From the NCBI GenBank assembly GCA_019058315.1, contig JAHPZH010000006.1, forward strand, positions 249,715 to 313,714: a stretch of 64,000 nucleotides of DNA, written 5' to 3'. The notes below the pieces were generated by a model. It did not search any database. It worked only from the letters and a program-made list of their open reading frames with translations, and was not told the origin of the DNA. This document shows positions 54,983 through 62,785 of the stretch, one piece after another. The DNA is from Candidatus Helarchaeota archaeon (GTDB lineage: Archaea; Asgardarchaeota; Lokiarchaeia; Helarchaeales; RDOG01). Within the stretch, counting starts at the first letter, position 1; each line of letters starts with the position of its first letter. The position numbers and the translations under genes are program-made.

Positions 54983-57900
54983 TTGATAAAATTGATAGAG
55001 TTATTCTTAATAATATTTCTGAATTTTCCTTCACTTCTTGTATTAATATCTTTCCTTTATATCCTGTTTCTTTCTATAAGTAAGCATATAAATTATGCTG
55101 ATGGTTATGCAAGAAAAAAGGGGTTTTTAATAGAGAATTATTATGATTATCAGAAAGATGGTTATAAAATAATATTATCTGGAGAGAGTATTTTTATTGT
55201 TGCTCCTACGGGGAAGGGAAAGACAGAGTTGGCGAAACTTGCTTTGTCAAGATCGTTATCTAAAAAGAAGGTCGGCGTGTATTTAGTTCCAACTGTTATG
55301 TTATTACACCAAAAAGCTAAAGAATTAGAGGAATTCTATGAAAATGAAGTTAAAATACTAATTATGCAAGCGGAAATTAAACCCAGAAATGAAGACTTGA
55401 AAGATGCTTTAGGACACACTATAATTGTAGCTACATATGAAGCATTTAGATCTTTTTTATTTGAAATTCAAAAACGAAGATATTTTAACACTAGAAAACC
55501 CTTTGGCTCGGTGGTCATTGACGAGTCTCACATGCTGGGTAATGAAAGTAGGGGAGCTAAACTTGAAACTATGCTATTAAAACTACAAAAAGAGCATAAT
55601 CCCCAATTTTGTTTTTTAAGTGGTAGTTTTTCGGAGAAATCAGCTAAGAAATGGGCTAAAAAGTTTAATTGCAAGTTGCGTTATGATTCTCTTGAGAGGA
55701 ATTTTAAGGGAAAAATTGTAGAAAAATTCGATGCTGATTACAAAGGTATTGATCCTAAATTATTAAGAATGAAAAAGGATGAAAAAAGAGATTTAACTAT
55801 TACAGAATGCAATATTTTTTTTAAAAGCCATATAATAGAAAGTAAAATGGCTATAAAACCTGGTAAAATGCTAATTTTTACATATAGTCGGAGAGCTGCG
55901 GAGGAATTATGTTATGATATTTACAATTTTCTTTGGTCAAAATATTTTGATTATAGGAAAAATATTTTTTGTGATTACATCCATGCAGGCATTGATCTTG
56001 AAAGACGAAAACAGATTTTTAACAGTTTTATGAGTGAGGATGGTATTAGATTCCTTTTTTGCAGTCCAGTCCTCGAAGTTGGGGTAGATATAAAAAATAT
56101 TCATGCAATTTTAATAACTGATGGTGAAATTTACAATACAGTAGAATTAACACAAATGATAGGCAGGTCAAGGGAAGAGGGAAGTTTAATAATTTTTTTA
56201 ATTGCAAGAAAAAAAATTAAAACATTAAAAAATAAATTAATTTATAATGATGAATTAAATAAGAAATATATTAATAATTTGACAGTTCTACCCCGTGGAC
56301 ATTTCTTTTTTAAAGGTTTTAAACTGGAAGACATTAAAAGTCAGCTATCATTAGAAATTATCCCCATATTAGCTCTTGAGAGATTATTTCACCATCAAAT
56401 TGATTTGAATAAATTAAAAGATCATATTTATTCTACTTTAAGTGCTATTGCAGAAGTTGATATAAGGAAAGAAATAATAAGAAAATTAAAGGTATATGAA
56501 GATTTTCTGGCGAAAAAACAACGCATCCATAATTGGAAAGAAAAAAATAAAGAAGACATAAAAGATTTTTCTACAGCAGAGTTAAAAAAAGAGTTAAAAA
56601 GAATAACACCATTAGCAATAGAAAATAGGACTCAATTCCATTATTCTAAACTTCAATTTAGAGAGTATATAAGATCAAGTAGAAAAAAAATAGGGTTGAC
56701 ATATATTGGGGAGGCTACTGTTGAAAGTCAAATTAATATACAGACTGCTGATAAACTATTACATTTTTTCAAGACTAATCAAAAACCCCCATCTCATAAA
56801 TGTAGATCATTAATTTCTCAATTAGTTGCTAAAAATGCAACAGCTGGAGATCCAAGATTTAGAGATGAAGGAGAAGATAAAGAATATATTGAAGCAAAGA
56901 GAGAAAACATTCAAGAATTTTTAGAAAACTTTCGTTGGGATATTAAAACTGAAAAGATTTCAAGTCTTAAATCTGATTTTTATGAGGGCGACATAGAAAA
57001 TTATCGAAAGACTGCTATTTGGCTTTCTGCTTCCCTATACTTATTTTATAGAGGATTTCTGATTCATGATTATGTGAAAGATATAATAAAAAAACCCAAA
57101 GAAGATTATTGGGAAGTGGATTTTAATGAGAGATTAGATGAATATAAAAAGAGTATTAATAGAATTAGAAGGTTATATAGGAGATATCAAAAGGATCCGA
57201 GAGAAAAAAGAAATCGGAAACCTGGTATATGGCGACATAGAGAAAATTGGAGAAATAAGGGTCCATCTAAACTTGATAAACAAATCTTAAAAGAATTAAA
57301 AAAGAGCGGAACTGATGGGTTTACTGTTAAAGAATTATATATGAAAATTTATGGAGATGTTAGTTTTCGTAAGATAAGGGGACATTTACAAAATAGCCTA
57401 GCAGATAAAGTTGAATATATTATAGAATACGGTCATACAGGTCGTCCCAACAAACGATATTTTTTAAAAGAATATTTTAACAAACCAAAATATAAAACTT
57501 GTAACGAATGTCAATATCTTAAATACGACCCAACAGAACGAAAGAAAAAGGGGGAAAGTAAGTATAAATGTAATTTTCATGATAATAGAAGAATTTTTCC
57601 CAAACAAAGAGCTTGTGAAGAATTTATTGAAAAAGTAAGAATGAGTTTTAAATTTTCTAGCTTTAAATTTATTAAAAATCGTCCTAAATGTCCTGGATGT
57701 GGGCAGATAAATTCCATAATAATTCCTCCTCATGGTTTTTTGTCAATTTGTAAGAACTGTTGGATCGTAGTTTTTAGAGGGGAACGTGGTATGTTTCAAG
57801 CTAGAAAGGGGTTACAAATTCCTGCATATAAACTGAAAGAAAAAAATGGTTTTTTAGTTGCAAAAAAAAGAAATTATAAATGGGGTATTATTGTCAAAAG

Positions 57901-62785: not shown

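Follow-up and report, generated by a model that had tools for sequence, protein, structure and literature searches.

Which function can a Cas1 integrase domain serve when it forms the middle of a single chain of 2600 amino acids (aa) that begins with a helicase and continues into a nuclease? The question is raised by a giant gene of Candidatus Helarchaeota archaeon, an Asgard archaeon, within the window, by which we denote the whole 64,000-nucleotide (nt) stretch analyzed here (assembly GCA_019058315.1, contig JAHPZH010000006.1, positions 249,715 to 313,714). An initial annotation, made from the sequence alone, has described the gene as a stand-alone Cas1 fusion and has considered three roles for it, namely that of a transposase of a mobile element, of a non-CRISPR DNA-capture or defence system, and of a domesticated repair or recombination enzyme. 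The first of these has been found to be best supported and matches the published proposal that Asgard aCas1 acts as transposase for a separate family of TnpB-bearing transposons (Altae-Tran et al., 2023; PMC10691335). In our reading, Helarchaeota-type Asgard archaea harbour a TnpB-linked mobile element that consists of two genes and is of the "aCas1-TnpB" kind, and the giant gene supplies its integrase/transposase subunit; we give this assignment about an even chance of being correct. The attribute "stand-alone" has had to be given up, as a tnpB gene is a conserved, divergently oriented neighbour at several loci.

A Cas1 domain in a chain of helicase and nuclease modules

The Cas1 domain (aa about 969-1390; 57887..59152, +), composed of an N-terminal beta domain and a catalytic helical domain, is recognized by the Pfam model Cas_Cas1 (PF01867) at aa 994-1227 with 36.4 bits against a cut-off of 22.3, and TIGR00287 matches the giant protein at 3.7e-10, which lies under its equivalog cut-off. 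A profile of six sequences, covering aa 560-1400, finds the Cas1 of Archaeoglobus (4n06, 8e-8) and the casposase of Methanosarcina (6opm, 2.8e-6). The AlphaFold model of aa 430-1400 reaches a predicted local distance difference test (pLDDT) score of 70-90 across the Cas1 part, and in a Foldseek comparison of this model with the PDB the best 50 matches are all Cas1 or casposase structures (4n06, E 1.5e-11; 6opm, 2.9e-10), aligned over about 400-420 columns with a TM (target) of 0.5-0.6, so that the Cas1 assignment of the initial annotation has withstood the fold comparison. Four residues of the Cas1 metal-binding type show no variation among six relatives, namely E1146, H1225, D1254, and D1257. 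In a quick tree, which is unrooted and in which the comparison consists of unlabelled standard-length Cas1s with no labelled casposases included, the Cas1 domains of the giant family fall on one side of a split (SH-aLRT 98) from the nearest standard-length Cas1s. All five Cas1 matches of the genome (5.8 Mb, 94% complete) lie inside giant frames. The lack of cas2 and of a CRISPR array, previously stated for the window, extends to the whole genome: no match to the Cas2 model PF09827 has been obtained, and a k-mer scan has returned only coding tandem repeats and no array, although arrays may be unassembled.

The N-terminal end of the chain carries a superfamily 2 (SF2) helicase core of Hel308/Ski2-like type (aa 55-396; 55145..56170, +), in which motifs I, II, III, and VI are intact. 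Pfam assigns DEAD to aa 55-221 (1.6e-24) and Helicase_C to aa 292-396 (2.1e-12), the nearest NCBIfam models and solved structures are of the Hel308/Ski2 type (PDB Hel308, 4e-13), and the motifs GKGKT, DESH, SGS, and QMIGRxR are kept across all paralogues. Between helicase and Cas1 lies a winged helix-turn-helix (wHTH; aa 762-828; 57266..57466, +), which shows the H-H-H-E-E pattern in the model at pLDDT 70-80 and is conserved in the alignment. It is followed by two four-cysteine, zinc-ribbon-like modules (C840/843/863/878 and C903/906/923/926; 57500..57760, +), whose eight cysteines are invariant in six relatives and whose profile matches to zinc-ribbon proteins are weak.

In the C-terminal half, a DHH phosphoesterase (aa 1413-1545) with its DHHA1 domain (aa about 1630-1775; together 59219..60307, +) has been located by motifs, by a protein language model and by Foldseek. 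Ten family sequences agree without exception in the DHH/DHHA1 motifs HxDxDG, AD, DHH, and GH, and the neighbours of the module in the language model are DHH/DHHA1 clusters (score 0.94). A low-confidence model of the module (mean pLDDT of the C-terminal half 49) matches 6mtz in Foldseek at E 4e-5, and a PDB profile search gives 6mtz as its sole match, at E 0.096; no Pfam match of the module and no match of the C-terminal half in a PDB sequence search have been obtained. The next domain has the RadA/Rad51 fold (aa about 1905-2125; 60695..61357, +): on the same low-confidence model, RadA/Rad51 chains hold Foldseek ranks 1-45 (E 3.6e-6), and the radB model matches the giant protein at 2.4e-4. Its P-loop is degenerate, with FCHKNEE where GxGKT is expected, and its Walker B reads IIVNQ, IIVNS, or VVITS instead of hhhhD, the aspartate being replaced; therefore, the domain is predicted to be an ATPase-dead RecA-fold domain and not a recombinase. 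Two further DHHA1-like units (aa 2125-2265, 61355..61777, +; aa 2470-2600, 62390..62782, +) have been identified by hhalign, which joins the three DHHA1-like units as homologous with a probability of 88-98% vs <1% for unrelated pairs. The helicase, winged helix, two zinc modules, DHH/DHHA1 module, RadA/RadB-like fold, and two additional DHHA1-like units had all been proposed in the initial annotation, and all of them have held, with boundaries correct almost to the base.

The frame itself is, as first described, uninterrupted over 2600 codons (54983-62785, +). Its true start codon is uncertain: TTG at 54983 and 54992 are the sole in-frame start codons 5' of the helicase, and the closest paralogue starts at the position of residue 28. 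A chimeric assembly appears unlikely, because the identical 2600-aa protein has been recorded from the NCBI assembly as well as from the Logan assembly and because colinear relatives exist in the same genome and in others. Several contigs of the assembly end in 102-nt tandem repeats coding for tetratricopeptide repeats (window 63044-64000; ends of contigs C6, C7, and C10), owing to which the window contig stops 1.2 kb after the giant gene and its right flank is hidden.

The divergent tnpB gene and the edges of the conserved block

Head-to-head with the giant gene and 350 nt upstream of it lies tnpB (53158..54633, -), which encodes 491 aa with OrfB_IS605 and Cas12f1-like TNB domains. It had been viewed as an independent insertion sequence, a view that does not agree with the recurrence of the conserved pair. 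The genome holds only six matches to the TNB domain of TnpB, three of which sit head-to-head with giant Cas1 genes, namely in the window and at the two copies on contig C11 (C11a and C11b), and a fourth is a piece within a remnant on contig C2; a solitary TnpB paralogue on contig C5 has no Cas1 remnant alongside. By a rough count, about 0.01 adjacencies of tnpB and giant Cas1 would be expected by chance, and two independent ones are seen. The divergent pair has also been found twice in genome G123, once in genome G124, and on one ENA metagenome contig. Both genomes belong to the same order, and the TnpBs of their pairs are 41-50% identical to that of the window; aligning the regions 3' of tnpB between genomes has been uninformative.

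One edge of the block is defined by comparing C11a with C11b, which are 81% identical in DNA across 8.1 kb. Their similarity starts sharply at GGTAGTTCAT, 107 nt past the tnpB stop, and beyond this point at least 350 nt are without similarity. The same 10-mer is present in the window at 53146..53155 (-), only 3 nt past the tnpB stop; given about 15 copies genome-wide, its placement there by chance is estimated at about 2e-4. Judged from this comparison, GGTAGTTCAT is probably the right end of the element as well as the end of the omega-RNA scaffold.

The boundary can also be read in a different way, in which the Cas1 fusion inserts or exchanges a guide segment beside the omega-RNA scaffold of TnpB and thus performs a one-spacer, array-less adaptation. 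Variability begins exactly past GGTAGTTCAT, relatives of the Cas1 fusion associate with two unrelated guide-dependent effectors (TnpB and a Cas7-like RAMP protein), and Asgard loci have been reported in which a CRISPR-repeat-like motif (GTTCACTCA) bounds a hypervariable stretch that lies downstream of tnpB (PMC10691335). However, the lack of any similarity between C11a and C11b over at least 350 nt implies that the variable part is ordinary flank and not a short spacer between conserved blocks, and the published GTTCACTCA motif is absent at the window. We consider such guide writing improbable.

Further evidence on the edges comes from the remnant at the end of contig C2 (G000:C2:383413-384600, L010), in which a 6.1-kb internal deletion has kept both outer parts: the 5' part of tnpB runs on into a C11-type giant gene, of which the final 225 codons are left, and the contig ends inside. 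On the other side of the window locus, a non-coding segment immediately 3' to the giant gene (62831..62994, +) ends sharply at AAAATCGGGGG and occurs in two genome copies; its counterpart after the C2 remnant (G000:C2:383294-383451) is 87-94% identical, as compared with ~37% for the giant genes there. On neither strand does the 171-nt stretch around this segment (62825-62995) show better folding than its shuffled versions, and Rfam has yielded no matches in 52500-64000. Downstream of the C11 locus, scattered repeats of 0.25-1.2 kb but no continuous repeat have been observed. The position of the tnpB-Cas1 pair is not syntenic in relatives, and upstream of polB the pair is absent in G123 and in genome G128.

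The polB gene, which encodes a family-B polymerase, shares the strand of tnpB and begins 113 nt past it, and this proximity would suit a casposon-like, self-synthesizing transposon that employs the adjacent polymerase. The orthologues of polB, which are 53-58% identical in four related genomes, speak against such a transposon, as does G123, where polB keeps its downstream neighbours without the tnpB-Cas1 pair; moreover, the other copies of the giant gene have no adjacent polB, and the conserved block stops before it. By its synteny, polB is best described as a host gene that is conserved and that the conserved block does not include, and a polymerase-employing transposon is very improbable. 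An identity as a casposon has been rejected on the same grounds, there being no element-borne PolB. Neither terminal inverted repeats (TIRs) nor target-site duplications (TSDs) have been found, a weak negative given that one end is undefined.

For a two-gene element of giant Cas1 fusion and TnpB, a plausible sequence of events can be proposed. The Hel308-like helicase would open the DNA at the element ends, the RecJ-like DHH/DHHA1 nuclease would trim the 5' strands and expose 3'-OH ends, and recognition of the ends would fall to the winged helix together with the two zinc modules, in the manner of the corresponding HTH and zinc modules in casposases. The Cas1 domain, by means of E1146, H1225, and D1254/D1257, would then join the 3'-OH ends to the target DNA. 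In the absence of Cas2, a scaffold for oligomerization or DNA binding may be formed by the RadA-like domain, itself ATPase-dead, together with the additional DHHA1-like units; a putative docking of the RadA-like domain on filaments of host RadA has also been proposed. With an omega-RNA as its guide, which would end at GGTAGTTCAT and read the adjacent flank, TnpB may cut element-free sites and so provide retention or homing, as in IS200/IS605. The "unwind-trim-integrate" machine of the initial annotation is compatible with the apparently intact helicase, DHH, and Cas1 motifs; what has not survived is its stand-alone form, given the tnpB partner.

Paralogues, relatives, and the weight of a host-side role

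The genome contains five giant genes in addition to the deletion remnant at the end of C2. Relative to the window copy, protein identities are 43% for the copy on contig C7, 33-34% for C11a and C11b, and 30% for the copy on contig C1; C11a and C11b are 76% identical to each other, and identities among the five copies are otherwise 27-43%. The C1 paralogue P0006 (L009:9421-13737) has retained the helicase-Cas1 core and carries a leucine-rich-repeat (LRR) tail that replaces the DHH/RadA-like half, and another LRR gene comes after it.

Two small genes have been noticed beside the paralogues. The single LAGLIDADG gene of the genome is located directly upstream of the C7 giant gene (L006:17596-18621), and a gene for a winged-helix and coiled-coil protein of 173-178 aa, with weak matches to TBPIP/Hop2 and Csa3, is found at L007:14418-14954 (C11a) and L006:8374-8895 (C7). 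These are its only two full copies genome-wide, each directly after a giant Cas1 gene, and the cassette of ~580 bp that contains it has opposite orientation at the C11a and C7 loci.

Beyond this genome, a HMMER search of 1.84 billion representatives has returned 23 clusters at E < 1e-30. The recurrent core order of the family is helicase, helical region, wHTH/Zn, and Cas1; the DHH and RadA-like tail occurs only in a subset, and a more distant group of 1130-1360 aa consists of helicase and Cas1 only. The family is rare and patchy, being present in 6/400 genomes of the phylum, and relatives are listed by NCBI as Helarchaeota. A relative of 2152 aa, P0019, bears the NCBI label "Candidatus Deferrimicrobium sp." (a bacterium); its frame is also found in G124:C38, placed by GTDB in the archaeal order of the window, and a wrong label or faulty binning is the probable explanation. 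Ahead of a further relative, P0016 (1897 aa), stand a MarR-type HTH gene and, in divergent orientation, a Cas7-like RAMP gene (Pfam RAMPs, 26.3 vs 22.1 bits; Csm3, 3.7e-6) and two unassigned genes, with no TnpB; from its gene content, we classify this neighbourhood (L030:4572-7928) as an ARAMP-like context.

Several of these observations weigh against a TnpB-linked mobile element. The RAMP gene stands beside P0016 in the place of a TnpB, and the C7 and C1 paralogues are without a tnpB neighbour. The exchange of the C1 tail for leucine-rich repeats looks, in terms of domain content, more like the diversification of a host gene family. Because most copies are only 27-43% identical (76% for C11a/C11b), recent transposition is not shown; the five copies are old and not near-identical. 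The TnpB is itself atypical: in the window-type TnpB and its G123/G124 orthologues, RuvC-I and RuvC-III have kept their aspartates, GYNE stands at the position expected for the RuvC-II glutamate, which is shifted, and the canonical CxxC...CxxC zinc finger is missing, as opposed to the C11-type TnpB, which has one; a PDB alignment of TnpB does not extend over the catalytic residues. Searches for TIRs and TSDs have found none, the element has no defined far end, and downstream of tnpB the published GTTCACTCA motif is lacking.

Alternatively, the fusion may be a domesticated, host-side module for DNA processing or defence, which is not mobile and acts with an RNA-guided partner (TnpB here, RAMPs in relatives). 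The paralogues are deeply diverged and yet have kept all catalytic residues, the C-terminal half is modular (DHH/RadA-like, LRR, or none) as in families of immune receptors, one relative adjoins a RAMP gene that scores above the Pfam cut-off, as in ARAMP systems, and element ends have not been found. PADLOC, however, has yielded only generic helicase and Cas1 matches, and among the window neighbours scanned by Pfam no other defence genes stand out. A mobile element would better explain the sharply bounded duplication of C11a/C11b, the copy with an internal deletion, and the patchiness of the distribution. A host-side role is regarded as the serious but rather unlikely alternative.

Relation to published Cas1 systems

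The initial annotation spoke of an uncharacterised element, which does not hold in the sense of an unreported one, because the literature already describes Cas1 homologues of Asgard archaea, together with their contexts of TnpB and of ARAMP (PMC10691335; PMC8730458). Altae-Tran et al. (2023) have assigned the "aCas1-associated TnpBs" to two Asgard groups named Cas1H-Asgard-1 and Cas1H-Asgard-2, where "Cas1H" may be taken to denote a helicase fusion. The likeness to the window locus lies in the Asgard host, in a highly diverged Cas1 beside tnpB, in the lack of array and cas2, in the presence of several copies, and in the transposase role that has been proposed. As a difference, the published loci carry GTTCACTCA and are flanked by repeats, and here neither has been found, GGTAGTTCAT being shared instead. 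A 2022 review (PMC8730458) reports, with reference to Makarova et al. (2020; CRISPR J 3:156), that the diversity of Asgard Cas1 homologues is unprecedented, part of them belonging to ARAMP systems and others perhaps to new mobile elements. The ARAMP systems with their distinct Cas1 seem to involve the same broad Cas1-helicase family, to which P0016 with its adjoining Cas7-like RAMP gene belongs; the window differs in having TnpB and no RAMP genes, as far as the summary in that review permits the comparison.

With casposases such as that of Methanosarcina mazei (6opm), the giant protein shares a Cas1-fold integrase without Cas2 or array and additional HTH and zinc modules for DNA binding. In contrast to them, it is seven times larger, has a helicase and a nuclease fused to it, and comes with no element-borne PolB and no TIRs found. 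In CRISPR adaptation complexes (Cas1 with Cas2/3 in type I-F; Cas4-Cas1), Cas1 is likewise coupled to a helicase and a nuclease, whereas here everything resides in one chain, the nuclease is of the DHH and not of the HD or Cas4 type, and Cas2, array, and effector complex are missing. The kind of system is known from computation; to the extent that it could be checked, a new variant of it is seen in the single chain that combines an intact helicase, a DHH module, a RadA-like domain that is dead, and DHHA1 units in repeated form.

Casposon transposons and CRISPR adaptation are connected through Cas1, and Cas12 descends from TnpB. A conserved pair of Cas1 and TnpB without arrays or Cas2 in an Asgard lineage therefore bears on the origin of the cooperation between integrases and RNA-guided nucleases. 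For experimental work, a single chain with an apparently active helicase (by its motifs), a RecJ-like nuclease, and an integrase offers one protein that could be assayed, and the five diverged paralogues, the internal-deletion copy, and the sharp omega-RNA end could guide the design of substrates. More speculatively, and with little likelihood, the Cas1-helicase-nuclease fusion might be more than a transposase, namely an effector-agnostic DNA-capture module that supplies or renews guide or target information for TnpB or RAMPs without an array; if this were true, it would represent an extant form that stands between transposons and adaptive immune systems.

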